Source: Candidatus Woesearchaeota archaeon
GTDB lineage: Archaea; Nanobdellota; Nanobdellia; Woesearchaeales; WJKL01
Reading direction: 5' to 3'
DNA: 64,000 nt
Assembly: GCA_036481345.1 (NCBI GenBank)
Contig: JAZGHU010000015.1
Coordinates: 3,315-67,314 of the forward strand
Of the stretch, positions 5,141 through 61,721 are shown piece by piece. The position numbers and the translations under genes are program-made. Position 1 is the stretch's first letter. Each line of letters opens with the position of its first letter. The notes under the pieces are model-generated. The model was given only the letters and a program-made list of their open reading frames with translations, was not told the origin of the DNA and searched no databases.

Positions 5141-5527
5141 TTATTTTTTAACTTCTTTCTTAGGCGCTGTTTCTTTTTTCTTTGTAGTCTCTTTCTTTTT
5201 AGATGAAGAGTCAGACTCCTTCGTCTGGGCATCTGGCTTTACTTTTGCTTTTCTAACTTTTCTTGGCCTTTCTGTAGTATCTTTTGATTTCTTTTCTTTG
5301 ATATCTATTTTCAGTTTTTTGAATTCAGAAACAATATCAGTATGAGATGCTCCTTTTTTGATCTTGATAGTTTCTTTTAGCGGTTCAATATGTTTGATAT
5401 TACAGTTTCTTCTTCTTGTTTCACCATCTATTAAGACTGTATTATCATCTATTACATCTACAACTACACATTTCTTTCCTGCGTCTCTTCCTGCAATTTT
5501 AATACATAGTCTTCCGATTTCAATCAT
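5141..5527 (-). CDS. rpl14e: ribosomal protein L14e with KOW domain and Lys-rich C-terminal tail
   Basis: [27 protein letters not shown] motif; about 50 aa K/E-rich tail. Confidence 0.7.
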
Positions 5528-5591
5528 TTTTCATCCTTTTCGAATCTAAGTTTTATCATCTCTATCAACCAAGTTATTAATGAAATTTTAA

Positions 5592-5903
5592 TCATCTTCT
5601 AGCCCCTTTTATTAGTTTTTTTCTTGTACAACTTGAACATAAATAACCTCCAAATAGTCTTGTTGGACGCTTCTTTGTTTTAGGCAGATTTTTCATCTTT
5701 GAAACAGATTTGTTTGCTGTTCCTGGAAGAACTTTTCCACAGCCAGCACATTTTGCTTTTCCTGTTTTTTTAGCTTTATAATGTGTAACTGTTCTTCCAC
5801 CAGGTGTTTTTACGTATTTTAACTTCTTACTCCTAGATTTAAATCTACCATAACGGCCTTCTCTTTGGATTTTTGCTTTTGTTTTTCTTTTTGATCCTAC
5901 CAT
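5592..5903 (-). CDS. rpl34e: ribosomal protein L34e
   Basis: RYGRFKSRS...CAGCGKVL...SSCTRKKL zinc-ribbon L34e signature. Confidence 0.75.
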   Translation of the reverse strand: MVGSKRKTKAKIQREGRYGRFKSRSKKLKYVKTPGGRTVTHYKAKKTGKAKCAGCGKVLPGTANKSVSKMKNLPKTKKRPTRLFGGYLCSSCTRKKLIKGARR

Positions 5904-5912
5904 GTATATCCC

Positions 5913-6692
5913 TTAATGCAATTTCATTATTTTTCTTAATGTCATACTAAAGATAATTGAAAATATAATATATGTTCCTAGCCAGCCAATTGGCAGCCCT
6001 GGAATTGGTTTTACTTTTTCATTATCAATCTTCAACTGCTGTAATTTGCCTTCTTTTATAACTTTTACGGGTTTTTCGTATGCTTTTTCTTCTGTTATTA
6101 GCAGTTCTTGAGTTTCTTTTTGATCATCAAATTCATATTCTAAAAGATAGTTTCCTGTTACACCTTTTAATATCCATTGAGATTCACATATTTCTTTTGA
6201 ACGAATCCATCCTTTTTCCATACGACATTCAACTTCTTGTGTTGAATCTGAGGTTGTTTCAATTCCTTCTGGTGCAATAAGAGTTATTTCGCCTGAAGTT
6301 CCTCTATCAAACATTGCTGTTGTTGTAAATTCTTGATCAGGAAGAATAGGTTCAAATGCTATATTAGCATTTAACCATCCAAATATCAAAATAATTGGAA
6401 TAAATGTTACTAGAGTTGGCTTCATTGAATGCATCATGTATTTCATGTTTGTTTCCATTGCTCTTTTTTGGACTGCCATGAATTCCTTAGGATTATCTTT
6501 AAGTTCTTTCATCTGTTTTTGGAACTTTTTGATGTCTTCCTTCAAAGCCCTCATAAGATGCTGATCTGTCATCCATTTGTAAACTAGAGTAATTAATACT
6601 GCTACAACTAATGAGATTATTAGAATAGACCAGAATGAAGGTATCCCTAATAATGGTGCCATTATTGGGTTAAGTATAGTTTCAAATGCCAT
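5913..6692 (-). CDS. DUF106 / Oxa1-YidC-like (EMC3-related) membrane protein with an unusual insertion of about 120 aa between TM2 and TM3
   Basis: TM1, cytosolic K-rich coiled coil, TM2, long soluble loop, TM3; it occupies the position DUF106 takes downstream of secY in archaeal operons. Confidence 0.45.
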   Translation of the reverse strand: MAFETILNPIMAPLLGIPSFWSILIISLVVAVLITLVYKWMTDQHLMRALKEDIKKFQKQMKELKDNPKEFMAVQKRAMETNMKYMMHSMKPTLVTFIPIILIFGWLNANIAFEPILPDQEFTTTAMFDRGTSGEITLIAPEGIETTSDSTQEVECRMEKGWIRSKEICESQWILKGVTGNYLLEYEFDDQKETQELLITEEKAYEKPVKVIKEGKLQQLKIDNEKVKPIPGLPIGWLGTYIIFSIIFSMTLRKIMKLH

Positions 6693-6754
6693 TTTTTTAC
6701 CTCGAGTATTCCATAAACTTACGTTATGATTTCATATCGAAATCAAAAGGAAAG

Positions 6755-8143
6755 TTATTCCATAAATTTCCTCATCATTGGATGCATATCATACATATGC
6801 TGCTTTGCAATTTCTTCATATAACTTGTAAATGATCATAACAGTCAATAATATTCCAGTCCCCCTACTTAATGCTCCTGATAAGTCTGCCAATGCTGCTA
6901 TAAATCCAACAGTAATAGCACCCATTACAGTTAAAGGCCAGATGTATCTATTTAATAATCTTTCTAAAACTCTTTGGTCTCTTCTAAAGCCAGGAATTTG
7001 CAGGCCGGAGGACATGATTTGTTTTGCCTGGGATTTTGCATCCATTCCAGATGTCTGCACCCAAAATATTGAAAACATTACAGCCCCTCCGATCATAATA
7101 AGCATATAAACTAAACCATGGGAAACATCTGCAAATGTCAAGCTGCCTTTGATTAATTTTCCAACAAGATCTGGAGAAAATAACCAAGCAACCAAGCCGG
7201 AGGCAGGAGTATTTCCTATAAATGTCCCTAGTATGGGGTGTCCCCAGTTTTGCAAGAGACGCGCCCAGAGCTGAATATTGGCCATCAGCGCGGCAATCAA
7301 TATAACAGGAATGTTAGATGTATATATGAAACTTAATGGCCACCGCATTCCATGGCCCCTAATTCTACCAAAAGATAAAGGAATCTCAACTTTCATTGCC
7401 TGTCCATAAACAGCAATCGCAAATACTAAAATTGTTGATATGACTGCTGCAATCATCAAAGCAGCTGTTATTGGATCTCCTGCTGATAATGATTGGAATA
7501 AAGCTGGAATTGCTCCAGTAGCTATCCCTGGATTAGCTGGAGAGGGCAATGGAGAGAGAGCTCTTATGAATATTTGTTCTGAAACACCTGCTGCGATAAA
7601 TAAGGAGATACCCGAACCAAAACCCCATTTTGATATAACTTCATCCATAAACATAATTAGCATTCCACCAAGGAATAATTGAAATACTAAGATCAATTGT
7701 AATTGGAAATAAATACCTGTTCCAGCAAAAGTTGCTGGCGGAGCTAGGCCTCCCATAAAAACATAGATTATTCCTTCAAATATTACAAAGAAGATTGCCA
7801 ATAGTTTTTGAGTTCCTTGGAATCTTTTTTTGCCTTCATGAGATGTAAGATCAAACTTGATTATCCCTGAACCATTTAATAACTGTAAAACAATAGAAGC
7901 TGTTACTAAAGGACCAATTCCTAATGAAATTATTGATCCAAATTTAGCTCCTAAGATTAAAGATAAATATTCAAATTGTTGTAATGCATTTGATCCTAAG
8001 CCAAACAAAGGTATTAATCCTAAAATGAAGAATATAGCTAAAGTTATGCCAGTCCATTTTAATTTTTCCTTAAAAGCTAATCTTTTTTGCTCAGGACCCT
8101 GGACTTCTGGTAAGTTTGATAATAGATTATCCCACAAACTCAT
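6755..8143 (-). CDS. secY: preprotein translocase subunit SecY
   Basis: 462 aa, 10 TM, archaeal SecY/Sec61alpha sequence, immediately after L15. Confidence 0.9.
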   Translation of the reverse strand: MSLWDNLLSNLPEVQGPEQKRLAFKEKLKWTGITLAIFFILGLIPLFGLGSNALQQFEYLSLILGAKFGSIISLGIGPLVTASIVLQLLNGSGIIKFDLTSHEGKKRFQGTQKLLAIFFVIFEGIIYVFMGGLAPPATFAGTGIYFQLQLILVFQLFLGGMLIMFMDEVISKWGFGSGISLFIAAGVSEQIFIRALSPLPSPANPGIATGAIPALFQSLSAGDPITAALMIAAVISTILVFAIAVYGQAMKVEIPLSFGRIRGHGMRWPLSFIYTSNIPVILIAALMANIQLWARLLQNWGHPILGTFIGNTPASGLVAWLFSPDLVGKLIKGSLTFADVSHGLVYMLIMIGGAVMFSIFWVQTSGMDAKSQAKQIMSSGLQIPGFRRDQRVLERLLNRYIWPLTVMGAITVGFIAALADLSGALSRGTGILLTVMIIYKLYEEIAKQHMYDMHPMMRKFME

Positions 8144-8670
8144 TTTTTAAGTTCCTCAGTCTTTTCAGGAGCAGCTTCTGCTGTTTTCTCTTCTTTGACT
8201 TGAGGTTTTTCAGCAGGAGTCGCCTCCTTTTCTGGTTGGATCACTTCTCCACCTGCAGCTTGTATCTTTTCAATTGCTCCTGCAGAAAATAATGGAGAAG
8301 TTATTTTGAATTTTTTTGTTATTTTACCATTGCCTAAAACTTTATTGAACCCAAGTTTTTTCACATCTACGATGATAATATCTCCTTGTTGTTCAATTAG
8401 TTTTTTTGCTAATAAAGTATTAATTTTTTCTTGAATATAAGAAAGACTAACTGTCTTTATTATCATAAGATTTTTCTTTTTAAATCCGTGCTTTCCAAAG
8501 TAGTTTTTATCTTTCCAGATAGATGGCTTTTTTGCATCTCCTCTTTTGCCTGTTCCAGCCATACCTTTTCCTCCCCTGTTTCCAGCTCCCCTATGTTTTT
8601 TCATAGAGCCCCATCCATGGGAAGTGGATCCACGCCTTCTGGAAAATCTTTTACGTTTGTTTACTACCAT
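8140..8670 (-). CDS. rpl15: ribosomal protein L15 (uL15) with K/E-rich C-terminal tail
   Basis: GRG/GKG N-terminal glycine-rich region typical of uL15. Confidence 0.8.
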   Translation of the reverse strand: MVVNKRKRFSRRRGSTSHGWGSMKKHRGAGNRGGKGMAGTGKRGDAKKPSIWKDKNYFGKHGFKKKNLMIIKTVSLSYIQEKINTLLAKKLIEQQGDIIIVDVKKLGFNKVLGNGKITKKFKITSPLFSAGAIEKIQAAGGEVIQPEKEATPAEKPQVKEEKTAEAAPEKTEELKK

Positions 8671-8671
8671 T

Positions 8672-9073
8672 TTAAATCATCCTTTTGATTAAATCATTAA
8701 TTTTAGTTCCTCTTGGTCCTAATGCTCCACCTTGTTTGAATGGAATTTTTATTCCTTTTCTTTCAAATCCCTTTCTTGGTGGATGTAATCTGAAATATTT
8801 TTTATCTTTTTCTTGTCTTTTTTCTTTTAATAATGAGGCAGTTTCTTCGTCAACTTCTCCCCAAGTTATGTAAGATTGTACTTTTTTGATCATACCAAGC
8901 ATACTTGGAGATGCATTAACAATAACACATGAATTTTGTTTGTAAAGTTTTAACATGTTAAGAGTATCTTTTACTTCTTTTTTGAGTTTAACAGATCCTC
9001 TAATTCTAACTATTGCAATCTTTTTGTATTGCTTCTTTTCTTCTTTTTGTATCTCTTGGTTTTCTTCTGCCAT
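8672..9073 (-). CDS. rpl30: ribosomal protein L30 (uL30)
   Basis: IAIVRIRGSV...position between S5 and L15. Confidence 0.75.
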   Translation of the reverse strand: MAEENQEIQKEEKKQYKKIAIVRIRGSVKLKKEVKDTLNMLKLYKQNSCVIVNASPSMLGMIKKVQSYITWGEVDEETASLLKEKRQEKDKKYFRLHPPRKGFERKGIKIPFKQGGALGPRGTKINDLIKRMI

Positions 9074-10022: not shown

Positions 10023-10540
10023 TATTCGTTCACCTTGATTTTGTTTTTGATTTCATCAAATATTTGTGTAATTTCAGCAGCTTCTTTTTTGTATTTAGCT
10101 ATGTGGCTGCCATTGATTCTGGTTTCATCTGGAAATATTTCCCCATCATGAGGGATATTCAATCCAGCGTCAACAGCCCCTTTTAAACAAGCATATATTC
10201 TTGAGCCTTTTGTTGGCTTTGCCAATCCTGTATCAAGGATAGCTTCTTTAACTCCTGCTTTGACTGCTTTTGTTCCTGCTAATAATCCAGTCAAATAAGC
10301 AGCTGGAACATTTCCTTTACTAAATTTCCAACCTAGTGCTTCTAGTTCTCTAGAAGTCGCTGCCACGATAATTTTATCCCCTTCTGGACTATATTCTACT
10401 ATTTGAGCATAAGTATTTTTTAGGAAAGTTCTTACTATTAATCTTGGTTTATCAGATAGTAATAGCTTTAACCTTTTCTTGTAATTTGTCTTTCCTTGTC
10501 TCTTTCTTCTGAATTGGACAGTTGCTTTTTTTGATTTCAT
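10022..10540 (-). CDS. rpl18: ribosomal protein L18 (uL18)
   Basis: sequence and operon position (L19e-L18-S5). Confidence 0.8.
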
Positions 10541-10998
10541 TGTTTTTTCTCTTGTATAAGTTTATGTTCTTCTAAGTATAGTTTAATGTGACGTTTGCTT
10601 CTGAAAAATCCTCCCTTGGATTTTCTGTAAAGTCCGTGATAATTAGATTTGCTTATAAATTCCTTGTCACGCAATTCTTTAAGGAATCTTCTTTGGATTC
10701 TTATTTTTCCAATCCACGCTTTCTTTTTTGGAAGTCTTGCTGTTTTTTTACCTTTTGTTGAGCCAGGACCTTTTCTCTTACCTTTGCTCTTCTGAATTGT
10801 TATTTTTCTAGCTCTTACTCTTGAAACCCCTTTGACTGGCTTACGTTTAATAGCTTCTCCTGAGATTAGAGATTTTATATCTAATTTTGTTATTGCTTCT
10901 TTAATATCCTCTAATTTATCTTGATCAAAGACAATCCTTTTTTCAGAACATTTCAATATGTCTGATGCAAGTCTTTTTTGGAGTTTAAGTTGAGTCAT
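10537..10998 (-). CDS. rpl19e: ribosomal protein L19e
   Basis: [15 protein letters not shown]... canonical L19e N-terminus. Confidence 0.8.
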
Positions 10999-35859: not shown

Positions 35860-36759
35860 ATGTTTTTATCTATTCTAGATTTAGTTTACCTTATGAAGGA
35901 AGCAAAGCATTATAAGAAATTGCAAGGAAAGAAAATTCAGTGTGAGATGTGTCCTAGAAAATGCATAGTTAAAAATGGAGAGAAAGGATTTTGCAAAGCA
36001 AGAGAAAATAAAGAAGGGAAATTTTATAGTTTAGTTTATGCTGCGCCATGTTCTGTTAATGTGGATCCAATTGAGAAAAAACCGTTATTTCATTTTTTAT
36101 CAGGCACTAAAACTTATTCTGTTGGAACAACAGGCTGCAATCTAAGATGTAAGTTTTGCCAGAATTGGCAGATCAGTCAAGCTGTTCCAGAGGATGTTCC
36201 TTTTCTTGATTTAAGTCCTGCTTCTGTTGTCGGGGATGCAATTGTAAAAGGATGTGAAAGTATTTCTTATACATATACTGAACCATCAATATTTTTTGAA
36301 TATGTTTTGGACACAGCAAAGCTTGCTAGAAAAAAAGGATTAAAAAATATTATTGTATCAAATGGTTTTGTCAATCAAAAACCACTGAAAGAAATGTGCA
36401 AAGTTATTGATGCTGCTAATATTGATTTGAAATCTTTTTCAAATGAATTTTACAAGAAATATACTGGGGCTTGGTTAAAGCCTGTGCTTGAAAGTTTGAA
36501 GACAATTAAGAAAGAAGGTGTTTGGCTGGAGATAACTAATCTTTTGATTAATAGATTGAATGATGGTCCTGTTGAGATTAAGAAAATGTGCAAGTGGATT
36601 AAAGAAGAATTAGGAGAGGAAGTTCCAATACATTTTTCTAGATTTTTCCCTAATTATTTGATGCAAGATATAAGTCCAACTGATAAAGATAAATTGTATG
36701 AGGCAGAGAAGATTGCTAAAGAAGTTGGATTAAAGTATGTTTATTTAGGCAATATTTAA
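35860..36759 (+). CDS. radical SAM enzyme of the AmmeMemoRadiSam/PFL-activase-like family
   Basis: CEMCPRKC N-terminal Cys pair and the CNLRCKFCQN radical SAM CxxxCxxC cluster. Confidence 0.7.
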   Translation: MFLSILDLVYLMKEAKHYKKLQGKKIQCEMCPRKCIVKNGEKGFCKARENKEGKFYSLVYAAPCSVNVDPIEKKPLFHFLSGTKTYSVGTTGCNLRCKFCQNWQISQAVPEDVPFLDLSPASVVGDAIVKGCESISYTYTEPSIFFEYVLDTAKLARKKGLKNIIVSNGFVNQKPLKEMCKVIDAANIDLKSFSNEFYKKYTGAWLKPVLESLKTIKKEGVWLEITNLLINRLNDGPVEIKKMCKWIKEELGEEVPIHFSRFFPNYLMQDISPTDKDKLYEAEKIAKEVGLKYVYLGNI

Positions 36760-36804
36760 AAAAACTAGTGCTTTATGGAGTTTGTTTGGTGATAGGGGGG
36801 CTTT

Positions 36805-38670
36805 ATGCACAAACTTGTTTTGTGTTTGATTGTATTTTGTTTTATTGAGATAGCAATGGCTGATATTGTTATAACTGAAGTGATGTATAATCCTGGGCAA
36901 TGTGATGATTATGATTGTGAGTGGATTGAATTATATAATACGGATTCTATTAGTGTGAATTTAACTGGTTGGATATTAGATGGTGAGTCCTTAGATGGAA
37001 TAGTTATCAGTGCTCACGAATATATTGTATTAGCTGATGAATTAATAGACGGCAATGACGCAGATAATGAAAGCTTTGAATCATATTGGGGAAATAATGA
37101 TGGAGTATGGAATCCCTTGGATGGCAACTTCGATGCTTATGATATATCTCTTTCTTTAAAAAATACAGAAGACAGCATTATTCTTACAGATAGCACATAT
37201 ACAGATACTTTAAACTATAGTTCTAGCTGGGGTGCAAATGGGAATGACTATACATTAGAGAAAATAAATCCAGATGGGGCAAATACACAAGAGAATTGGG
37301 CGGTTGGTTTTGTTATGAATGGTACTCCAGGGATGCAAAATAGTATTTATGGAACTGGAGAAATTGATTATAGTGTAATAACTATCAATGAATTTTTACC
37401 AGATCCACATGGAGATGATAATGCGCCAATGCCTCAAGGGGAATGGATTGAGCTTTATAATTCTGGAAGCCAAAACATTAATCTAAAGTGGGCTTTTTTA
37501 GAAGATTTACAAGGACATAAAGTTTATATTGCAGATACTACAACAGTTGATACAACAATTATCCCTGCTAATGGATTTTTAGTTATCTATACAAATGGAT
37601 TTTCTGGACTTTTGAATAATGGAGGGATAGAAGAATTAAGATTTTATGATAAGGAAGACAACCTAATTGATTCTGTGAGCTATGAAGGGTCTGATGAGGG
37701 CAGTTCTTGGGCAAATGTTATTGATAATTGGCAGAGAACAATGCCCACTCCTGAAGGGGAGAACATGGATTACACAAAAGTAAAGGATTCTAAATTTGAT
37801 ATAGATACAATTTATGATCTTGGTTCAGATGATGTAGCTAAATTTGGACAGACAATAAGAGTTAAAGTCAACCTCTATAAAGGAGATGAAACCAAAAGCG
37901 TTTTAAGAATGTGGATAGCAGATGGAGATGAAAAGATAAGCAAAGAGTCGAAGATAACAATTTCCACAAAATATACTAATGTTTCATTAGCAGTGCCTAT
38001 TCAGCTTTATCCAAATTGCAATGAAAAATATGATGATGGAGATTATGATATTTTTATTGGATGGACAAGCGAGGATTTTGAAGAGGATTCATTTCCGTTA
38101 GAAGTAGAAGATATTACAGATTCCTTGTGTGAAATAGTAAAGGTAGAGAAAAGCAGCACAACAAGCGCAAAGAAATTTGAATATAACCTTGTTTCAAATC
38201 CAGATGAAATTAAAAGTGGGGAAGAGTTTGACATTAGAGTTGAATTAAATAATCATGATGATGAAGATTATGATATTGATATCTGGAGTTATGTCTATAA
38301 GGGGAATAAAGCTTATAGTGGTGGAAGAGAGGATAATAAGAAATCTTTTGTTTTAGAAAAAGGAAGTTCTGAAACAATTAAGTTAAGGAATACAGTTGAT
38401 GCTGCTCCTGGAGATTATAATCTTAAAATCAAGATAATAAAGAATAATCAGAAGACAGCAAAAGAGATAACAAATACATTGAGAGTCATAGAAGAAGTCA
38501 GTGAAGGGGGATATGCTGAAGGAATTGTTGGAAAAGCTTCTGGAATCTTAAAATGGAGAGAAGCTTTTGTTTATGAATCAACTTCTTTCAAAGCAAAAAA
38601 CTTGGTTCCTTTGTTGTTTATTATTTTATTGAGTTTATTTGTGATTATATTGATATTTACTAAGAATTAG
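36805..38670 (+). CDS. surface protein with two lamin-tail domains (LTD) and a C-terminal TM anchor
   Basis: signal peptide; ITEVMYNP...EWIELYN and INEFLPDP...EWIELYN LTD signatures; C-terminal hydrophobic helix. Confidence 0.6.
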   Translation: MHKLVLCLIVFCFIEIAMADIVITEVMYNPGQCDDYDCEWIELYNTDSISVNLTGWILDGESLDGIVISAHEYIVLADELIDGNDADNESFESYWGNNDGVWNPLDGNFDAYDISLSLKNTEDSIILTDSTYTDTLNYSSSWGANGNDYTLEKINPDGANTQENWAVGFVMNGTPGMQNSIYGTGEIDYSVITINEFLPDPHGDDNAPMPQGEWIELYNSGSQNINLKWAFLEDLQGHKVYIADTTTVDTTIIPANGFLVIYTNGFSGLLNNGGIEELRFYDKEDNLIDSVSYEGSDEGSSWANVIDNWQRTMPTPEGENMDYTKVKDSKFDIDTIYDLGSDDVAKFGQTIRVKVNLYKGDETKSVLRMWIADGDEKISKESKITISTKYTNVSLAVPIQLYPNCNEKYDDGDYDIFIGWTSEDFEEDSFPLEVEDITDSLCEIVKVEKSSTTSAKKFEYNLVSNPDEIKSGEEFDIRVELNNHDDEDYDIDIWSYVYKGNKAYSGGREDNKKSFVLEKGSSETIKLRNTVDAAPGDYNLKIKIIKNNQKTAKEITNTLRVIEEVSEGGYAEGIVGKASGILKWREAFVYESTSFKAKNLVPLLFIILLSLFVIILIFTKN

Positions 38671-53192: not shown

Positions 53193-53209
53193 GTCGCTTT
53201 CGTAGATAT

Positions 53210-53293
53210 GCGAGGGTGGCAGAGTGGCCAAATGCGCAAGGTTGAGGGCCTTGTTCCTTAGTGGATGCGCGAGTTCGAATCTCGTTCCTCGCA
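53210..53293 (+). tRNA. tRNA-Leu(GAG), class II, no intron
   Basis: hand-folded. GCGAGGG/TCCTCGC acceptor, anticodon stem CAAGG/CCTTG with loop TTGAGGG, 15-nt variable arm, T arm GCGAG-TTCGAAT-CTCGT. Confidence 0.8.
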
Positions 53294-53308
53294 TAATAAT
53301 TATATAAA

Positions 53309-53674: not shown

Positions 53675-54091
53675 ATGATAATCAATGCTGAAAATTTAAT
53701 TGTTGGAAGAATAGGAACTGTTGCTGCTAAGAAAGCTTTAATGGGAGAAAAAGTAAATATTGTTAATTGTGAAAAAGCAATAATGACTGGAAACAAAAAA
53801 GAAATAATAGCAAGATATAAAGAAAAAAGGCAGATGGGGCAAGTATACCATGGACCTTATATCTTAAGAAGACCTGATATGTTTGTTAAGAGAGCAATAA
53901 GAGGAATGCTGCCATATAAGCAAGATAAAGGAAGAAACGCATTTGAAAGAATAAGATGCTATCTTGGTGTGCCTGAAGAATTTAAAGATAAGGAAATGGA
54001 AACAATAAAAAAAGCAAATATTGGAAAAGTTCCTAGTTTAAGATATACTACTGTTAAAGAAATTTGTAAGTCAATGGGGGGAGTTAAATAA
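53675..54091 (+). CDS. rpl13: ribosomal protein L13 (uL13)
   Basis: sequence. Confidence 0.85.
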   Translation: MIINAENLIVGRIGTVAAKKALMGEKVNIVNCEKAIMTGNKKEIIARYKEKRQMGQVYHGPYILRRPDMFVKRAIRGMLPYKQDKGRNAFERIRCYLGVPEEFKDKEMETIKKANIGKVPSLRYTTVKEICKSMGGVK

Positions 54092-54093
54092 AA

Positions 54094-54492
54094 ATGCCAA
54101 AGCTAGTACATATGTCAGGAAAGAGAAAAAGAGCAGTAGCAAGAGCTACATTAAAGCCAGGAGTAGGCAAAGTTAGAATTAATAATAAGATGATTGATGT
54201 TTATGGAACTAAGCTTGCTAGATTGAGAATAAAAGAACCATTGATTTTAGCAGGAGAGATTGCTGCTGGAGTTGATATTATTGTCAGAGTAAATGGTGGA
54301 GGATCAAATTCACAAGCAGAGGCAGCAAGATTGGCAATAGCAAGAGCTTTGGCAAAATATAGCAAAAAATTAGAGAAAGTATTTTTGAATTATGATAGGC
54401 ATATGCTGGTTGCAGATGTTAGAAGAAAAGAACCAGCTAAACCAAATAGACATGGAAAAGCTAGAGCAAAAAGGCAAAAATCTTACAGATAA
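54094..54492 (+). CDS. rps9: ribosomal protein S9 (uS9)
   Basis: sequence, C-terminal ...KSYR. Confidence 0.85.
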
Positions 54493-54505
54493 AGGTGATA
54501 ATAAA

Positions 54506-54703
54506 ATGATAATTCCAATAAGATGTTTCAGTTGCGGCAAACCAGTAGGTCATTTATGGGAAGAGTTTAAAGAAAGATCTAGTGCAGGAGAGCCTAAGAA
54601 AAGAGTTATGGATGAATTAGGACTGGAAAGATATTGCTGCAGAGCTTTGTTCATGGGACATGTTGATCTGATCGATACTGCTGGTAGGTTTAAGAAATTT
54701 TAA
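54506..54703 (+). CDS. rpoN: RNA polymerase subunit N (Rpo10)
   Basis: [12 protein letters not shown]...CCR zinc motif; the ORF-track N-terminal extension overlapping S9 is rejected. Confidence 0.75.
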
Positions 54704-54712
54704 TTTATTTCT

Positions 54713-55477
54713 TTAAATAAATTCTTTGTATTTTTCTATATATTCTTTATCTTCAAAAATAATTTTTTTGAATATTTCTTGAAATTTTTTTAATTGCATT
54801 CTATGAGCAAGATGATCAAGATCATAATGATATGTTCCATCATATCCTAATTTAATTAACATATAATTAACTTGAATCATAAATAGAGAATTATTGATAT
54901 AAGAAAAAGGGCGTGCATTTATAGCATAAAAATAATATGATGCAATCTTCTTTATGGGATGTGAAGAGTTATCTTCAATTTCTTTTTTCAAATCTATTAA
55001 ATGTTTATGACATTCTTTTAAATATAATTCTAGATACACACTTCTTGGATAAATATGGAATCCATTTTTTTTACTATGTGGCCACCCTTGTTTAGGTATC
55101 TTATGAATTTTGATGAATCTATCTGATTTTGAAGACCCAAAGTATTCTGCTAATTTTTGTTTTTTTAATCTTGTTGATCTAACTCTTACATTATCTTTTC
55201 TAAAATCAAAAGGTTTATTTTTGAACCATTTTTTATATAATCTTGAATCAATTTTTCTATAAGGGCCATTATCATTTTTTCCTAATGCAATTATTTTTCT
55301 CATATTTTTTAACATGCTTTTATATTCTTTATATTCTATTTTTTTTGAATTATACCATTTATCGAAGAATTCAAAAGCGCCTATACAATTTCTAATATAT
55401 ATTTCATTAGCATCCTTTAAAAGATGAGGATATCTTATGAATATATTGTTATTTTTTAATGGAGTTTGTGTTTTCAT
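54713..55477 (-). CDS. hypothetical protein, first gene of the AT-rich island
   Basis: 254 aa, N/K/Y/I-rich composition, no recognisable catalytic motif. Confidence 0.3.
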   Translation of the reverse strand: MKTQTPLKNNNIFIRYPHLLKDANEIYIRNCIGAFEFFDKWYNSKKIEYKEYKSMLKNMRKIIALGKNDNGPYRKIDSRLYKKWFKNKPFDFRKDNVRVRSTRLKKQKLAEYFGSSKSDRFIKIHKIPKQGWPHSKKNGFHIYPRSVYLELYLKECHKHLIDLKKEIEDNSSHPIKKIASYYFYAINARPFSYINNSLFMIQVNYMLIKLGYDGTYHYDLDHLAHRMQLKKFQEIFKKIIFEDKEYIEKYKEFI

Positions 55478-55575
55478 TCTAGGATTTTTTTCATTTTAAA
55501 TTTTAACTGCAACATCTTTAATAAATTTTTTGATGAATACCAATATTTTTAAATGAGAATAATAAAACATTAAAA

Positions 55576-57072
55576 ATGAAGGTATTATTTATATATCCTA
55601 ATTTGAAGGGAAATGATGTTAATATAGGTATTAGTCTACTTTCAGCAATTTTAAAAGAAAAGTCACATGAAGTAAAAGTAATACATATCAATGAATCGTT
55701 GGGAATCCCTTTTGATTTTGAATTAATAAAAAAAGAAATAATCTCTTTTAATCCTGATTTGATAGGAATTTCTGCAAATACTACTCATTTTTCTATGGGC
55801 ATTAAAATTGCAAAATTCATTAAGGATAAAATGACAGAAGAAGTCCCCATTGTTTTTGGTGGTGTTCATACAACCCTTAATCCAGACGAAATTTTAAAAT
55901 TTGATTGTATTGATATGTTGGTAGTTGGAGAAGGAGAGGAAGCAATAGTTGAATTAGTAGAAAAACTTGGAAAAAAAGAAGACATTTCAGAAATTCAGAA
56001 TTTATGGCTGAAAAAAAATGACAAAATTATCAAGAATCCATTAAGAAGATTCATACCTTTAGATAAGCTGCCTCCAATGGATGTCAGTATCTGGGATTTT
56101 CAGAAAGTTATTGATTCCAAAAAGGGATGGGTTAATGTTAGTTTAAATAGGGGGTGCCTTAATAATTGCACGTATTGTTTTAATAAATCATATAAAACTA
56201 TTTATTCCAAATATTGTATTAACAAAACAGATAATTATTTGAGGATTGGGGATTACACTACAAAAATCAAAGAAATTAAAGATATTTTAAATTCTTATGA
56301 AGGGGTAAAGATTATACGTTTTGTTGATGATGATTTTTTACTGAATGATTCAATTATTGAATTCATGAATATATTCAAAAAAGAGATAAATTTACCTTTT
56401 GTAATTAATGCCCATATAAACTCTGTCAATGAAGAGAAATTAATAGCACTCAAAAAAAATAATTGTCATCTTTTAGGAATTGGAGTAGAATGTGCTAATG
56501 AAAATATTCGTAAAGAAATTTTAAATAGGCATATGTCAAATCAACAAATTAGAGAAAAAATAAAATTAATAAAAAAAATAGGAGTAAGATTAATGAATTA
56601 TATTATGTTTGGTTTTCCTACTGAAACAAAACAAAATGTAATTGAAACCTTAAAATTAAATTCTGAATCTCAACCAGATATTGTAAGAAGCAGCATATTT
56701 TTTCCGTGTGAAGGAACTGAATTGTATTCTATATGTGAAAAACTTGAGCTTATATCTCATTCAAAGGATCAGAATCTTTTTACTTATTTTGAAAAAAGCG
56801 TGTTAAATTTTAATGATGATTTCAAATTATTTTTAGAAAAAGTTCAAAAATATCTTGATTGTTATTTGAATTATTATAATGAAAATCTTTCTTCAAAATA
56901 TGGTGCTCTTATTGCTATGATTAATAATTTATCTAGGGAACAATGGGGTGATGAAGAAGTTCATAAAGAAATTCAAAAAATGAGGGAGTCTATATCTCAA
57001 GATTTATGTTCAAAAAAAACATTTCATTATGCTATGAGATTCACATCTTATTTTGCAGTAAGAATAAATTAG
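55576..57072 (+). CDS. B12-binding-domain radical SAM enzyme
   Basis: N-terminal B12-binding Rossmann region followed by the CLNNCTYC radical SAM CxxxCxxC cluster. Confidence 0.65.
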   Translation: MKVLFIYPNLKGNDVNIGISLLSAILKEKSHEVKVIHINESLGIPFDFELIKKEIISFNPDLIGISANTTHFSMGIKIAKFIKDKMTEEVPIVFGGVHTTLNPDEILKFDCIDMLVVGEGEEAIVELVEKLGKKEDISEIQNLWLKKNDKIIKNPLRRFIPLDKLPPMDVSIWDFQKVIDSKKGWVNVSLNRGCLNNCTYCFNKSYKTIYSKYCINKTDNYLRIGDYTTKIKEIKDILNSYEGVKIIRFVDDDFLLNDSIIEFMNIFKKEINLPFVINAHINSVNEEKLIALKKNNCHLLGIGVECANENIRKEILNRHMSNQQIREKIKLIKKIGVRLMNYIMFGFPTETKQNVIETLKLNSESQPDIVRSSIFFPCEGTELYSICEKLELISHSKDQNLFTYFEKSVLNFNDDFKLFLEKVQKYLDCYLNYYNENLSSKYGALIAMINNLSREQWGDEEVHKEIQKMRESISQDLCSKKTFHYAMRFTSYFAVRIN

Positions 57073-57095
57073 TTCTATAATTGATCAAATATAAC

Positions 57096-58571
57096 CTAGT
57101 AGTTTTTTATTATATGTGCTATAGATTTTCTAAGACTGTATTCATCATCAAAACCCCCTTTTACTTTAAAATTTCCCCCAATAGGAGAAGGAGCATCTTT
57201 TAATTCGTTTCCTTTTTCAGTAGCCCAACCAAAATCAATTAATTTAATAATGCCATCTTTTACAAGCAAATTATCTGGTTTAATATCTCTATGAACTATT
57301 TTTTTGTTGTTTAATTTTAATAATATTTCTTTTATTTGTTCATTATAATTATTAGGAAGATTCTTTTTTGTTAATGGGATTCCGGAATATTCAATAATTA
57401 TTTTAGAATCATTTACATCTTCAATTAATTTCGGAAAATGAATTGAATCTAATTTTTTTAACGCATTGACTTCATATTTTTTACATCTTAGTAAATTAGA
57501 ATAATTACTATTTTTATTAAAATAAGATTTCATTATTTTATTTTTTGATATTCTACTAACTTTAGATGTTTCTCCTTTGAAATTTAATAAGGGTTTAGTA
57601 CATTCAAAAATTAGCTTTTTTGAATTCTTTCCCTGTTGATATTTGCTCAATTCAATTTTTGTAAAACAGGTATTATTAATTAAGAAATTTTTAATACCTT
57701 CTATATCCCGTATACCCATCTCTTCCATTTCTTCTTGAAGAGAGGTTTCAAAAAATAACATTCTATTAATTTTTTTAGTAAATTTATACATAAAATTTAA
57801 TGCATCTTCCTTTCCAAGAGTTTTTAATAATCTATTAAATTCACCAAACCAAACACAATAATTTATATTGTTTAAATTTTGCAAAATGCTTTTTGTTAAT
57901 GGTCTATTAGAAAAGATTGCATTCTTTTTTTTTATTTCTTCTATTACCATATTGTTATTCCAATGACTTTTATATCTTATAATGTACTTATTTGCGATCT
58001 TCATACGCAACCTACCAAATTTTTCTTTAAATTTATTACAATCAATCCATTTTTCAAATAAGATCAAAGTCTTCTTATCTAATTTATGGTAATCTATTGT
58101 AAAATTAATCTCGGTATCTAAACCTTCCCACATATTTAAAGGAAGATATTTTTTTAGATTCATTTTTTTTAGAATATCTCTTTTATATTTACCAATACTA
58201 GAATTCCAACCCCTTTTATTCAAAGAAAAGGCAATGCTTCTTTCTTTATACTCATTAAAAACTATATCAAATAAGTGAGGATTTACAATTTCACAAGAGT
58301 GTGACAACAAAAGTATATTTTTATAACTGGTTTTATTATATGCTGTGTAAATGGCGCCAAATTCAAATGAGTTTGTATTAATTTTTTCAATAGTGATTGG
58401 AAGTTCTTTAAATTTATTTTGAATTTCTAAAAATTGATTAAATTCTCTTTTTTTATACTCATTAATTACTATTAAGATAGGATATTTAATATACCCTTTG
58501 AATGATTTTAGAAGATTTTCTAGGAATTTAATTCCTGATATGTGGGTAGATATAACAATAACATTATTCAT
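57096..58571 (-). CDS. fusion protein: N-terminal nucleotide-sugar-transferase-like domain plus C-terminal Ser/Thr or sugar kinase-like domain
   Basis: C-terminal HRDIKPDN catalytic loop and DFG motif. The N-terminal VIVISTH...ILIVINE pattern resembles GT-A glycosyltransferases, though this is weak. Confidence 0.5.
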   Translation of the reverse strand: MNNVIVISTHISGIKFLENLLKSFKGYIKYPILIVINEYKKREFNQFLEIQNKFKELPITIEKINTNSFEFGAIYTAYNKTSYKNILLLSHSCEIVNPHLFDIVFNEYKERSIAFSLNKRGWNSSIGKYKRDILKKMNLKKYLPLNMWEGLDTEINFTIDYHKLDKKTLILFEKWIDCNKFKEKFGRLRMKIANKYIIRYKSHWNNNMVIEEIKKKNAIFSNRPLTKSILQNLNNINYCVWFGEFNRLLKTLGKEDALNFMYKFTKKINRMLFFETSLQEEMEEMGIRDIEGIKNFLINNTCFTKIELSKYQQGKNSKKLIFECTKPLLNFKGETSKVSRISKNKIMKSYFNKNSNYSNLLRCKKYEVNALKKLDSIHFPKLIEDVNDSKIIIEYSGIPLTKKNLPNNYNEQIKEILLKLNNKKIVHRDIKPDNLLVKDGIIKLIDFGWATEKGNELKDAPSPIGGNFKVKGGFDDEYSLRKSIAHIIKNY

Positions 58572-58662
58572 TTCTTTATCAAATTGGTGAATTTAATTAA
58601 TATTATAAATAATTCTCTTTTTTCATAACTTTTATAAACATCACTTATTACTTTTCTTTAAT

Positions 58663-61305
58663 ATGGCAGACTTCAAAAAGATACAAGCCAAATGGCAGAA
58701 AAAATGGGCAGAGAAAAAAGTCTTTAAGGTAAAAGAAGATCCAAAGATGCCTAAGTATTACTGTTTAGAGATGTTTCCATATCCTTCTGGAAGTGGGCTA
58801 CATATGGGGCATGCTTTTAATTATTCTATTGGGGATAGTTATGCTAGATTCAAGAGGATGAGTGGATTTAATGTTCTTTATCCAATGGGTTATGATAGTT
58901 TTGGATTGCCTGCTGAGAATGCTGCTATCAAAGCTAAGATTCATCCAAGAAAACATACTGAGAAAACAATTAAAAGATTTATAGAACAGCAGAAAGAGCT
59001 TGGATTAAGTTATGATTGGGATAGAATGCTTAGTACTTGCGAGCCTGAATATTATAAATGGAATCAATATTTCTTTTTGAAATTTATGGAAAAAGGATTG
59101 GTATACAGGAAAGAAGCTCCTGTTAATTGGTGTCCTAAATGCAAGACTGTTTTGGCTAATGAGCAGGTGCATGATGGAAAGTGCTGGAGACATGAAGATA
59201 CTGAAGTTGACCAGAAGATGTTAGAACAATGGTTTATCAAGACAACAGAATATGCTGATGAATTGTTTGAAGATATTCCTAAACTGCAATGGCCTGATAG
59301 AATTAAGACTATGCAGAAGAACTGGATTGGTAAAAGTCATGGGCTTATGGAAGAATGGCCAGTAGAAGGGATGAATTTGAAGTTGAAAACATTTACAACA
59401 GAGCCACACACTACTTATGGTGCTTCTTTTATGGTCTTAGCTCCTGAACATCCTCTTGTTTTAGAATTAGTAAAAGGCACTAAATATGAAAAAGAAGCTA
59501 AAAATTTCATAAAAAAGTGTAAACGTTTTAGAATCGAAGATCCAACAAATACAGAAAAACAAAAAGAAGGATTTTTCATAGGAAAATATGTTTTGAATCA
59601 TCTAAATAGAAGAAAAATGCCCCTTTATATTGCTAATTTTGCAATTATGGATTATGGAACTGGCATTGTAAAATGTACTCCTACACATGATCAAAGAGAT
59701 TATGAATTTGCAAAGAAATATGATTTAGGATTCTATCCTGTTATTGAACCACCAAATGAAAAACTAGATCCAAAGAAAATGAAACAGGCTTATACTGATC
59801 TAACTGTTGGAAAAATGGTTGATGCTGGAAAATTTACAGGTATGGATGCTAAAGAAGCAAAAATAGCTGTTGCAGATTATACTGTTAAGATAGGACATGG
59901 AGAGAAGACAGTTAATTACAAATTAAGAGATTGGCTTGTTTCAAGACAGAGATATTGGGGAACTCCAATTCCTGTTATTCATTGTGCAAAATGTGGGTTA
60001 GTCCCTGTTTCTGAAAAAGATCTTCCTATATTGTTGCCAGAGAAAGTTAAATTTGGAGAAGGCAATCCATTGCTTTCTAGCAAAGAATTTGTTGAGGTTA
60101 AATGTCCTACGTGTAAAGGAGATGCAAGAAGAGAGACAGATACAATGGATACTTTTTATGATTCTTCATGGTATTTCTTAAGATATTGTGATAACAAGAA
60201 TAAGAAAGCTCCTTTTGACAAGAAGAAAGTAAAGTACTGGATGCCTGTTGACCAATATATTGGAGGAGCAGAGCATGCTTGCATGCATCTTATCTATGCA
60301 AGATTTTTTACAAAAGCTTTGAGAGATTTGAAATATGTGAATTTTGATGAACCTTTTACTAAATTGTTTAATCAAGGCATGCTGCATGGTGATGATGGGC
60401 ATGTTATGAGCAAGTCAAGGGGGAACGTTGTATTGCCTGAAGAAGTTGGTGATAAATATGGAATTGATACTGCAAGATTCTTTTTGATGAGCATTGCTTC
60501 TCCTGATAAAGACCTGGAATGGAGCGATCAAGGAATAGAAGGCAGTGCAAGATTCATGAAAAGATTATTTGCTTATTTTGATTCAGTAAAGATTGGCAAA
60601 TCTTCGAAGAAAGTTGAGAGCAAACTAAACAAAGCAATAAAAGGAGTAACAGAAGATATTGAAGAATTTAGATATAATCTTGCAATCATAAAGATAAGAG
60701 AATTATTTGATGCTCTTGAAGAAGAAGTGAGCAAAAAGACTCTTGAAAATTTCTTAAAGTTATTACATCCTTTCTGTCCACATTTTACAGAAGAGTTTTG
60801 GGAAAAGATAGGAAATAAACCTTTTATTACATTGGCTGGCTGGCCAAAGTATGATGAATCAAAGATTGATCTGAAAGCAGAAGAGATTGAGAAATTTATT
60901 GAGGGTGTTGTTGGAGATGTAAGAAGAGTTTTGAAACTTGTCGGGAATGATAAGCCTGAAGAAATTATTTTATTTGTTTCAAATGAATGGAAGTACAAGT
61001 TTATGGATAAGATCAAGCAGGAAATGGAAAAAACAAGGAATATTGGAGAATTGATTAAGAAGACAATGGACAAGAAGCATGGAAAAGATATTTCTGCAAT
61101 GATTCCTAGACTAGTCAAGGATCCTGCTAAGATTCCAGAAATTGTATTGGACCAGAAAACCGAAGTTGATGCTTTGAAAAAGAATTTAACGATATTGAAG
61201 AAAGAATTTGGAACAGAGAATATTGCTGTGTTTACAGCTGATGAGAGTCATGAACCAAAGGCAAAGCAAGCAATGCCTGGCAAGCCTGCTATATTGATAA
61301 AATGA
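58663..61305 (+). CDS. leuS: leucyl-tRNA synthetase, bacterial type
   Basis: HMGH motif embedded in MFPYPSG.LHMGHAFNYSIGD...YPMGYDSFGLPAEN, together with KMSKS (VMSKS). This N-terminal pattern is typical of bacterial rather than archaeal LeuS. Confidence 0.9.
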   Translation: MADFKKIQAKWQKKWAEKKVFKVKEDPKMPKYYCLEMFPYPSGSGLHMGHAFNYSIGDSYARFKRMSGFNVLYPMGYDSFGLPAENAAIKAKIHPRKHTEKTIKRFIEQQKELGLSYDWDRMLSTCEPEYYKWNQYFFLKFMEKGLVYRKEAPVNWCPKCKTVLANEQVHDGKCWRHEDTEVDQKMLEQWFIKTTEYADELFEDIPKLQWPDRIKTMQKNWIGKSHGLMEEWPVEGMNLKLKTFTTEPHTTYGASFMVLAPEHPLVLELVKGTKYEKEAKNFIKKCKRFRIEDPTNTEKQKEGFFIGKYVLNHLNRRKMPLYIANFAIMDYGTGIVKCTPTHDQRDYEFAKKYDLGFYPVIEPPNEKLDPKKMKQAYTDLTVGKMVDAGKFTGMDAKEAKIAVADYTVKIGHGEKTVNYKLRDWLVSRQRYWGTPIPVIHCAKCGLVPVSEKDLPILLPEKVKFGEGNPLLSSKEFVEVKCPTCKGDARRETDTMDTFYDSSWYFLRYCDNKNKKAPFDKKKVKYWMPVDQYIGGAEHACMHLIYARFFTKALRDLKYVNFDEPFTKLFNQGMLHGDDGHVMSKSRGNVVLPEEVGDKYGIDTARFFLMSIASPDKDLEWSDQGIEGSARFMKRLFAYFDSVKIGKSSKKVESKLNKAIKGVTEDIEEFRYNLAIIKIRELFDALEEEVSKKTLENFLKLLHPFCPHFTEEFWEKIGNKPFITLAGWPKYDESKIDLKAEEIEKFIEGVVGDVRRVLKLVGNDKPEEIILFVSNEWKYKFMDKIKQEMEKTRNIGELIKKTMDKKHGKDISAMIPRLVKDPAKIPEIVLDQKTEVDALKKNLTILKKEFGTENIAVFTADESHEPKAKQAMPGKPAILIK

Positions 61306-61721
61306 ATAAAGAAGGAATAAAAAAAAGTCTTAAGAATCCTTATTTTAATTGGGGATTGGTTGTTGCTTATGCTGCATTGATATTTTATATGTCTAGTCTG
61401 CCAAGATTGATTCCTCCAAGTTTAGAAGGAGGATTAATTGATCTGATTGCAAATTATTCTATCCATATTGGATTAGCTCATTTTATTGAATATGCAATCT
61501 TAAGTTTGTTGTTGTTCAGAGCATTGTATGTTAGTAAAGTGAAAAATCCTGCTGTTTATGCTGTTGTTATTGCTATTGTTTATGGAATTACAGATGAATT
61601 TCATCAATTGTTTATTCCAAACAGAATGTTTGATGTAATAGATTTATTTTTCAATACAATCGGAGCAATAGCTGTTCAGTTTATTGGGAAAATTAAAACT
61701 TGGTTAATTGTCATTTCTTAG
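61302..61721 (+). CDS. VanZ-family membrane protein
   Basis: ITDEFHQ.F.P.R conserved VanZ motif, 4 TM. Confidence 0.6.
   Translation: MNKEGIKKSLKNPYFNWGLVVAYAALIFYMSSLPRLIPPSLEGGLIDLIANYSIHIGLAHFIEYAILSLLLFRALYVSKVKNPAVYAVVIAIVYGITDEFHQLFIPNRMFDVIDLFFNTIGAIAVQFIGKIKTWLIVIS

Follow-up and report, generated by a model that had tools for sequence, protein, structure and literature searches.

A low-GC three-gene insertion at the rpoN-leuS junction of a Woesearchaeota archaeon encodes candidate glycan-tailoring enzymes

Three intact open reading frames (ORFs) occupy approximately 3.86 kb between rpoN and leuS in a Woesearchaeota genome (assembly GCA_036481345.1, contig JAZGHU010000015.1), within the 64,000-nucleotide stretch analysed here, hereafter the window. 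The block and its two short flanking spacers lie at 54704-58662, bounded by the stop codon of rpoN (54701-54703) and the start codon of leuS (58663). ORF1 (54713-55477, minus strand; 254 amino acids; database record V3V78_01735) is predicted to encode a stand-alone, AvrB-like Fido-fold protein of an uncharacterised family; ORF2 (55576-57072, plus strand; 498 amino acids; labelled 'radical SAM protein' in its record) a cobalamin-binding (class B) radical S-adenosylmethionine (SAM) enzyme; and ORF3 (57096-58571, minus strand; 491 amino acids; V3V78_01745) a mosaic of a glycosyltransferase A (GT-A)-like domain, a truncated methyltransferase remnant and a kinase. Gaps of 98 bp (ORF1/ORF2), 23 bp (ORF2/ORF3) and 91 bp (ORF3/leuS) separate the genes. 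An earlier sequence-only reading had called them divergently arranged, which holds for ORF1/ORF2 and ORF3/leuS but not for ORF2/ORF3, which converge across their 23 bp; rpoN and ORF1 are likewise convergent. The left flank, rpoN (54452-54703, plus strand; PF01194), is the final gene of the S13-S4-S11-rpoD-L18e-L13-S9-rpoN block and is syntenic in three related loci (L012, L016 and L034, below), and the right flank, leuS (58663-61305, plus strand), carries tRNA-synt_1, tRNA-synt_1_2 and Anticodon_1 domains. Pfam matches support S13, S4, S11, RpoD, L13, S9 and RpoN upstream, and LeuS, a VanZ-like protein and a LeuA/homocitrate-synthase-like protein downstream; the L18e ORF (120 amino acids) has no Pfam match, and its identity comes only from its position and from 86% identity within the syntenic block of L012.

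The three-gene block is an insertion, as the sequence-only reading had proposed. When LeuS was scanned in one genome per species and the flanking proteins were mapped with tblastn, the closest relative with usable upstream sequence was Woesearchaeota Bin_187 (L012; LeuS 71% identical), in which the order is CNNM, S13, S4, S11, RpoD, L18e, L13, S9, RpoN, a 94-bp spacer, LeuS and LeuA. The LeuS of L033 is slightly closer (72% identical), on a contig that has only about 100 bp upstream of leuS. In a more distant Nanoarchaeota single amplified genome (L016) the rpoN-leuS junction is likewise direct, and ORF1, ORF2 and ORF3 are absent from both the L012 and L016 loci, which together indicate that the ancestral state was rpoN adjoining leuS. 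The conserved block is also kept in SM23-78 (L034), where an unrelated insert of 3.7 kb sits at the same junction, marking it as a recurrent landing site. This second insert (5218-8970 of LSSJ01000035.1, 'Euryarchaeota archaeon SM23-78') encodes an amidohydrolase (PF01979, 1e-56), a 450-residue protein with weak PP-loop/QueC similarity and, on the opposite strand, a multi-pass membrane protein of 310 residues.

Of the features expected of an integrative element, the block shows atypical composition and absence from the syntenic position in relatives, and lacks the integrase, tRNA and repeat features. None of the three island genes encodes an integrase or transposase, there is no tRNA target at the island edges (the nearest tRNA, the only one in the window, is 1.4 kb off, inside the ribosomal block), and no convincing direct or inverted flanking repeats were found at the block edges. 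A 9-mer, ATTTCTTTA, does occur at both edges (54707-54715 and 58570-58578), but some 12% of window pairs with comparable AT-richness have a 9-mer in common by chance, and the repeat is therefore no evidence for a target-site duplication. Alignment of the spacer upstream of leuS to that of L012 scored 10 (null, 0 +/- 4.8), too weak a signal to place the exact point of insertion. An Rfam scan of 54000-59200 returned a single sub-threshold match (SpR14; 34.7 bits against a cut-off of 50). A viral, phage or plasmid origin was considered and rejected: neither ORF2 nor the ORF1 motif gave a match on viral contigs, tblastn was empty for ORF1 and ORF3 against plasmids and for ORF1, the one query used there, against phages, and PHROGs matches were to generic kinases only.

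The extreme AT-richness that had first drawn attention to the block was borne out, at the same ORF positions, by windowed analysis: its GC content is 24.1%, against 32.7% in the rest of the window (z = -8.7), and the lowest of 1049 other windows of 3859 bp reaches 29.8%. By gene the values are 22.7% (ORF1), 26.1% (ORF2) and 23.4% (ORF3), whereas all 69 other long ORFs have at least 29.0%. Synonymous codon usage is host-like. GC at third codon positions (0.14-0.18, against 0.21 +/- 0.04) and the synonymous-codon score (z of +0.6 to +2.6, the direction being more host-like) are both within the host range, and the deficit sits at codon positions 1 and 2 (first-position GC 0.29-0.36, against 0.44), with Phe, Tyr, Met, Ile, Asn and Lys (FYMINK) making up 43-50% of residues in the three proteins and 35% in host genes. 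The compositional anomaly is thus real, but stems from amino-acid composition rather than from a foreign codon dialect, and low GC alone neither dates nor proves a transfer; with synonymous codons host-like, a recent transfer is unproven. Low GC is the usual behaviour of surface-polysaccharide genes. Homologues of the island families elsewhere are 1.2-11.8 GC points lower than their own host loci, so that low GC looks like a trait of this gene class.

ORF2, judged from its domains, belongs to the class B radical SAM enzymes, in a clade that is uncharacterised. An N-terminal B12-binding domain (residues 15-127; 55618-55956, plus strand; PF02310, 1.5e-19) precedes a radical SAM core (PF04055, residues 189-361, 1.3e-19) holding the CxxxCxxC cluster motif CLNNCTYC (residues 194-201; 56155-56178, plus strand), as the sequence-only reading had recognised. 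This layout is common to class B radical SAM methylases such as MgmA (9ccb; PMC11796369), TokK, BchE and HpnJ, and the closest solved structures are those of MgmA (1.8e-9) and TokK (7kdx, 3.1e-7). ORF2 differs from these enzymes in that its clade is found in DPANN and candidate phyla radiation genomes, often beside genes for family 2 glycosyltransferases (GT2). All 39 NCBIfam matches fall far under their cut-offs (the best, BchE, at 106 bits against 481; others include HpnJ, ladderane-type, PhpK, MgmA-type and ApyD), and ORF2 fits none of the defined subfamilies (BchE, HpnJ, PhpK, MgmA, ApyD or others). Woesearchaeota, Patescibacteria and unbinned metagenomes contain full-length homologues (45-58% identity), and two of the three loci sampled are glycosyltransferase/dTDP-sugar clusters: one homologue (P0072, 56% identical) keeps company with YdjC, two GT2 genes, a CDP-alcohol-transferase-like membrane protein, a second radical SAM gene and RmlA/B/C/D-like genes, and another (P0077, 50% identical) with GT2, GT9 and seven other radical SAM genes. 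Genes of about 250 codons beside ORF2 homologues were considered as relatives of ORF1 and rejected, being unrelated membrane proteins.

Domain-wise BLAST and an AlphaFold2 model (predicted local distance difference test score, pLDDT, 87.9) divide ORF3 into three parts. Over its full length ORF3 matches none of 5.8 billion proteins except itself, and the architecture thus appears to be both a singleton and new. The sequence-only reading had described an N-terminal GT-A-like domain of some 350 residues joined to a C-terminal kinase; both domains are recovered, but the former comprises residues 1-205 only, followed by a methyltransferase remnant (residues 236-327). The first part (57957-58571, minus strand) is assigned the GT-A alpha/beta/alpha fold by Foldseek (RmlT, 4.4e-8; TarS, 3.2e-7; TarP, 2.6e-6; also GfsA and WrtF; 6p61 with a target-normalised TM-score, TMt, of 0.53), with a pLDDT of about 90 over residues 1-110. 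It shares this predicted fold with GT-A glycosyltransferases of wall teichoic acids and other glycans (RmlT 8bz5, TarS 5tz8, TarP 6h1j), but no detectable sequence relationship. Its sequence relatives are instead some 35 stand-alone proteins (44-56% identity) of an unannotated family of about 285 residues, known from O-polysaccharide clusters of bacteria, in which none of 22 members gave a Pfam match and no PDB sequence match was found, so that the family has no place in a curated glycosyltransferase family. Aligned with these relatives (alignment A5), ORF3 keeps all 54 invariant columns, including TNSFE and HSCE, and lacks a conserved 36-residue segment and the basic C-terminal stretch of about 55 residues. 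All three stand-alone members whose loci we examined lie in polysaccharide clusters with Wzm/Wzt-type ATP-binding cassette (ABC) transporters, directly after methyltransferases, with a DUF5672 gene adjoining in two of the three; other family members are fused to GT2, Glyco_transf_7C, FkbM or TPR modules. The DUF5672 gene recurs beside the GT-A-like gene or the methyltransferase-kinase gene described below (L009 8845-9675, L011 8869-9678, L008 5953-6789), and strand motifs of the two families look alike (IVIPTHR/LLSHSCEIV in the GT-A-like family, AIVTPxHR/LVYQLDCLVF in DUF5672). The notion that the N-terminal domain of ORF3 is a divergent DUF5672 was unsupported by hhalign (probability 0.75%, E 0.075).

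The remainder of ORF3 (residues 209-491) matches proteins in which a small kinase follows a class I methyltransferase, at 42-51% identity for three of them (P0002, P0003 and P0033; 45-51% for the C-terminal half against the first two) and 27-30% for two others (P0056 and P0059). All five carry the SAM motif G[IL]DLGC[SN]VGGF and GYDYD (alignment A4), both of which are absent from ORF3, where homology begins at about residue 219. ORF3 has thus lost the first 100 or so methyltransferase residues, including SAM-binding motif I and the acidic post-I loop, and its residues 236-327 (57591-57866, minus strand), by that alignment and the secondary structure of the model, represent only the C-terminal half of the methyltransferase fold; the GT-A-like domain occupies the place of the missing N-terminal half. 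The small, eukaryotic-like kinase that follows (residues 330-491; 57099-57584, minus strand; Pkinase, 3.7e-10, with Bud32/RIO-like matches) is intact in its motifs: a G-loop, the lysine and glutamate, and, as the sequence-only reading had pointed out, HRDIKPDN (residues 427-434; 57270-57293) and DFG (residues 446-448; 57228-57236). The gene of 294 codons upstream of P0003 (L008) is no homologue of the ORF3 N-terminal domain, which argues against ORF3 being a fusion of genes that are adjacent elsewhere.

The nearest characterised relative of this methyltransferase-kinase family is WbdD of Escherichia coli O9a and Klebsiella pneumoniae O3 (4azs, 4azw, 4uw0), which heads the matches of the family profile against PDB (1.2e-14, the next match being 2.5e-9) and is matched by the ORF3 model in Foldseek (4uw0, 4.3e-7). 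Polymerisation of the O9a O-antigen stops once its terminal mannose has been phosphorylated and subsequently methylated by WbdD (PMC3482155), and methyltransferase-kinase terminators are variably fused with glycosyltransferase modules (PMC11231755). ORF3's source family has the domain order of WbdD, and ORF3 retains a kinase with HRD...N and DFG, but it differs from WbdD in having the GT-A-like domain in place of the SAM-binding methyltransferase half, a much smaller kinase resembling RIO/Bud32, and, beyond the kinase core, only a helix (residues 476-490) where WbdD has a coiled-coil ruler and C-terminal membrane helix. Nor does ORF3 stand in the Wzm/Wzt cluster setting typical of WbdD, there being no ABC2_membrane, Wzt or glycosyltransferase gene within about 20 kb of the block. 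Two of the methyltransferase-kinase homologues (P0002 and P0003) were placed in their loci, and both clusters are of glycan type: one holds an epimerase, GT2, a Wzx-type flippase and methyltransferases, the other GT2, GT9, DUF5672, a CMP-sugar synthetase, NeuB and GT1. The locus of P0002, which among these methyltransferase-kinase proteins is the closest to ORF3, lies on an archaeal contig (L007 410-14800) and abuts a conserved informational operon (L7Ae-S28e-L24e-NDK-EF2...EF1a), echoing the arrangement in the window.

ORF1, which had been put down as a protein with no recognisable motif, proved to have both a recognisable fold and a conserved motif. Its AlphaFold model is confident (pLDDT 86.3; predicted template modelling score 0.88), and the top 50 Foldseek matches are without exception Fido proteins (FICD, AnkX, AvrB), so that ORF1 is modelled as an enzyme with the Fido alpha-helical fold, AvrB being closest. 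A word-indexed search had returned ORF1 alone, and an exhaustive phmmer search was used instead, giving 259 relatives (54 of them below 1e-10) that share NARPFxxINNSLFMxQVN...G...HG.LDH. The corresponding motif in ORF1, NARPFSYINNSLF (residues 187-199; 54881-54919, minus strand), falls at the position of the canonical Fic motif HPFx[D/E]GN[G/K]R (PMC2686095) but departs from it. The single PDB match of the family profile, the Fic protein 3cuc (E 0.84), places it on IHPFEDGNGR, with which ORF1 (ARPFSYINNSL) coincides only in P, F and one N, and the Pfam Fic model does not match ORF1. AvrB (Pseudomonas syringae; 1nh1, 8txf) is a Fido-fold protein O-rhamnosyltransferase that uses UDP-rhamnose (PMC10866546). 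Unlike this effector, which bacteria secrete, ORF1 is an archaeal protein that stands alone, in a family of its own (motif NARPFxxINNSLF) and only 10-12% identical to AvrB in sequence. In bacteria the ORF1-type domain mostly resides within giant proteins of 2379 (L039), 1996 (L041) and 5567 (P0207, an Omnitrophota metagenome-assembled genome) residues. The first two (L039 11-7150, L041 1096-7086) contain repeats and almost no Pfam annotation, and in a further relative (P0196) the Fido domain is joined to an APH-type kinase.

Low-GC, lineage-variable islands with surface-glycan genes are familiar in bacteria and archaea. The present block resembles such strain-variable polysaccharide and glycosylation islands in being a compositional outlier, in its absence from the same site in relatives, and in its glycan-type enzymes, but differs in being tiny (three genes), in having no core glycosyltransferase, flippase or sugar-nucleotide genes, and in being wedged within a conserved informational gene block. 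Building on the observed insertion, folds, family assignments and glycan-cluster neighbourhoods of homologues, together with the chemistry of the closest characterised relatives, we infer the substrates, the chemistry of each step and a common target of the three proteins, and hypothesise, at roughly even odds (about 0.5), that the three genes tailor a surface glycan by phosphorylating it, modifying it through radical chemistry (probably methylation) and possibly adding a residue. On this view the short spacer found between rpoN and leuS in related DPANN archaea took up, in one event or several, three accessory genes, each transcribed on its own, for group-transfer enzymes of the cell-surface-glycan tailoring type. 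The WbdD-like kinase of ORF3 would phosphorylate a sugar hydroxyl on a lipid- or protein-linked glycan; as its SAM-binding half is lost, ORF3 itself could not methylate that phosphate, and its GT-A-like domain may bind or transfer a nucleotide-activated residue. ORF2 would supply a radical, most likely methyl, modification of the sugar or sugar-phosphate. ORF1 may transfer a group from a nucleoside-diphosphate-linked donor, either a sugar, as does AvrB, or a phospho-group, as do AnkX and Fic. The proposal agrees with the neighbourhoods of ORF2 homologues and of homologues of both halves of ORF3.

Several observations tell against this tailoring hypothesis. By orientation, ORF1, ORF2 and ORF3 are three separate transcription units. 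The genes within about 20 kb on either side are all of housekeeping type, and none encodes a known-family glycosyltransferase, a flippase, an oligosaccharyltransferase or a nucleotide-sugar enzyme. Nor did any other sampled locus have members of two of the three families side by side. The relatives of ORF1 were seen in giant effector-like proteins and not in glycan clusters, and one of the three sampled ORF2 homologues (P0074, from Patescibacteria) stands alone among SecDF, NUDIX and SecA genes. Within ORF3, the HSCE sequence that is invariant in the GT-A-like family (H91-S92-C93-E94) occupies the position after strand beta4 at which GT-A enzymes carry the DxD motif for binding metal and nucleotide-sugar, and the loss of the 36-residue segment and of the SAM-binding half means that parts of the protein may be inactive. 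Since only eight homologue neighbourhoods were examined (three among 337 homologues of ORF2, two among some 30 of the methyltransferase-kinase family and three among some 40 of the GT-A-like domain), the functional link is a hypothetical one, and that the three genes form one functional module is unproven.

The three may instead be unrelated accessory genes, gathered at a permissive site in possibly separate events and sharing no pathway, with ORF1 a stand-alone effector- or toxin-like Fido enzyme whose target protein belongs either to the archaeon or to its host. We regard this as the most credible of the alternatives, albeit unlikely. Alternating orientations, which mean three separate promoters, speak for it, as does the lack of co-occurring family pairs in the other loci sampled and of other glycan genes within about 20 kb; an unrelated insert has entered the same junction in L034, and, by comparison with L012 and L033, leuS and leuA have come to be separated by a VanZ-like gene. 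The giant proteins of 2000-5500 residues (one from Omnitrophota) of which ORF1 relatives are domains would likewise suit an effector. It accounts less readily for the extreme composition common to the three genes, for their contiguity across spacers of just 98 and 23 bp, and for the independent glycan-cluster links of two of the three, and the structure nearest to ORF1 is that of a glycosyltransferase, AvrB.

If the block were instead the decaying remnant of a larger glycan cluster, its genes would have lost their function, with ORF3 a relic fused by deletion. The parts that ORF3 lacks, namely the 36-residue segment and C-terminal stretch of about 55 residues from its GT-A-like domain and the first 100 or so residues of its methyltransferase with the SAM motif, are consistent with such decay, as are its singleton architecture and a FYMINK richness of the kind expected under relaxed constraint in an AT-rich genome. 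We nonetheless find decay improbable, given that three frames have stayed open over 254-498 codons at 24% GC, where stops arise easily, that ORF3 retains 54 of 54 invariant GT-A-like residues together with all kinase catalytic motifs, and that the models of ORF1 and ORF3 are confident (pLDDT 86-88).

A bolder extension of the tailoring hypothesis, which we offer as a long shot, is that the genes give an ultrasmall symbiotic archaeon a single, hitherto undescribed modification system for its surface or its interaction with a host. Here the three enzymes would install a capped phospho-sugar epitope, ORF2 standing in for the lost methyltransferase half of a WbdD-type terminator, on a glycan of the S-layer or of a pilus, or even on a protein of the host. 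If so, then the ORF1 family, with its NARPFxxINNSLF motif and its occurrence otherwise within giant proteins of other ultrasmall bacteria, would represent a new catalytic branch of Fido enzymes.

Fic/Doc proteins are common toxins, and a low-GC insertion at a hot spot could house an anti-virus defence or toxin island, whose Fido toxin, kinase and radical SAM enzyme would target nucleic acids, nucleotides or host proteins during infection. PADLOC models do match the ORF3 kinase (PD-T4-6 and mad6, 1e-9 to 5e-11) and ORF2 (PDC-M51A, 1.3e-9), but the former matches span only 35-50 residues of the generic HRD/DFG core, the latter is weaker than those to ordinary B12-radical SAM families, and ORF1 has none. 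Moreover, the search for ORFs in the gaps found no antitoxin-sized neighbour, no relatives were present on the viral, phage or plasmid records searched, and the closest homologues lie in glycan clusters rather than defence islands, which together make a defence role a rather poor prospect.

A cassette for ribosomally synthesised and post-translationally modified peptides (RiPPs), in which the radical SAM enzyme and kinase would mature a ribosomal precursor, had been floated in the sequence-only reading, and both enzyme types are indeed known from RiPP clusters, but we consider it very improbable: the weak NCBIfam matches (ApyD, 2.6e-20, at 72 bits against a cut-off of 750; LanKC/LanL, 3e-4 to 7e-4), like all RiPP-family scores, are far under their cut-offs, the kinase family is WbdD-like and not LanKC/LanL, the three proteins and their neighbours include no PqqD/RiPP recognition element, lyase, cyclase, protease or transporter gene, and the gaps of 98, 23 and 91 bp hold, among ORFs of at least 20 residues, only low-complexity overlaps, in keeping with the initial impression that no precursor peptide was obvious.

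The surface glycans of DPANN archaea, which rely on contact with host cells, have hardly been studied. As phenomena go, a low-GC island of glycan type at a permissive site is a fairly ordinary, expected part of the flexible genome; what is somewhat unusual is the architecture of the proteins within it. With its defined site, a compact cassette points to genes that vary among closely related lineages, and thereby offers a tractable place to study surface variation. New here are the architecture of ORF3, as far as the searched proteins reveal, and two families recovered as by-products: a GT-A-fold family without annotation, repeatedly present in polysaccharide clusters that depend on ABC transporters, and the uncharacterised AvrB-like Fido branch with its NARPFxxINNSLF motif, many of whose 259 relatives are found in giant proteins.

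The neighbourhood of the island offers further observations. The VanZ-like gene (61302-61721; 139 amino acids) lies between leuS and leuA and has a GC content of 0.29, equal-lowest outside the island; leuA directly follows leuS in L012 and L033, so that only a few kb from the island a second small gain appears to have occurred, unless the relatives lost the gene. LeuS itself varies among relatives: in L034 (8971-12249) it is 1092 residues long, an alpha/beta-hydrolase domain (PF00561, 1e-10; GxSxG as HSMGG) being inserted mid-synthetase at about 10300-10950, and LeuS matches in L032 and L036 are likewise split in two pieces. The only tRNA gene detected in the window, tRNA-Leu(GAG), sits between rpoD and L18e at 53209-53294. 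Further upstream, at 35860-38670, a small second radical SAM gene (299 amino acids, without a B12 domain) is followed by one encoding a lamin-tail domain (LTD) protein of 621 amino acids, which is possibly a surface protein.

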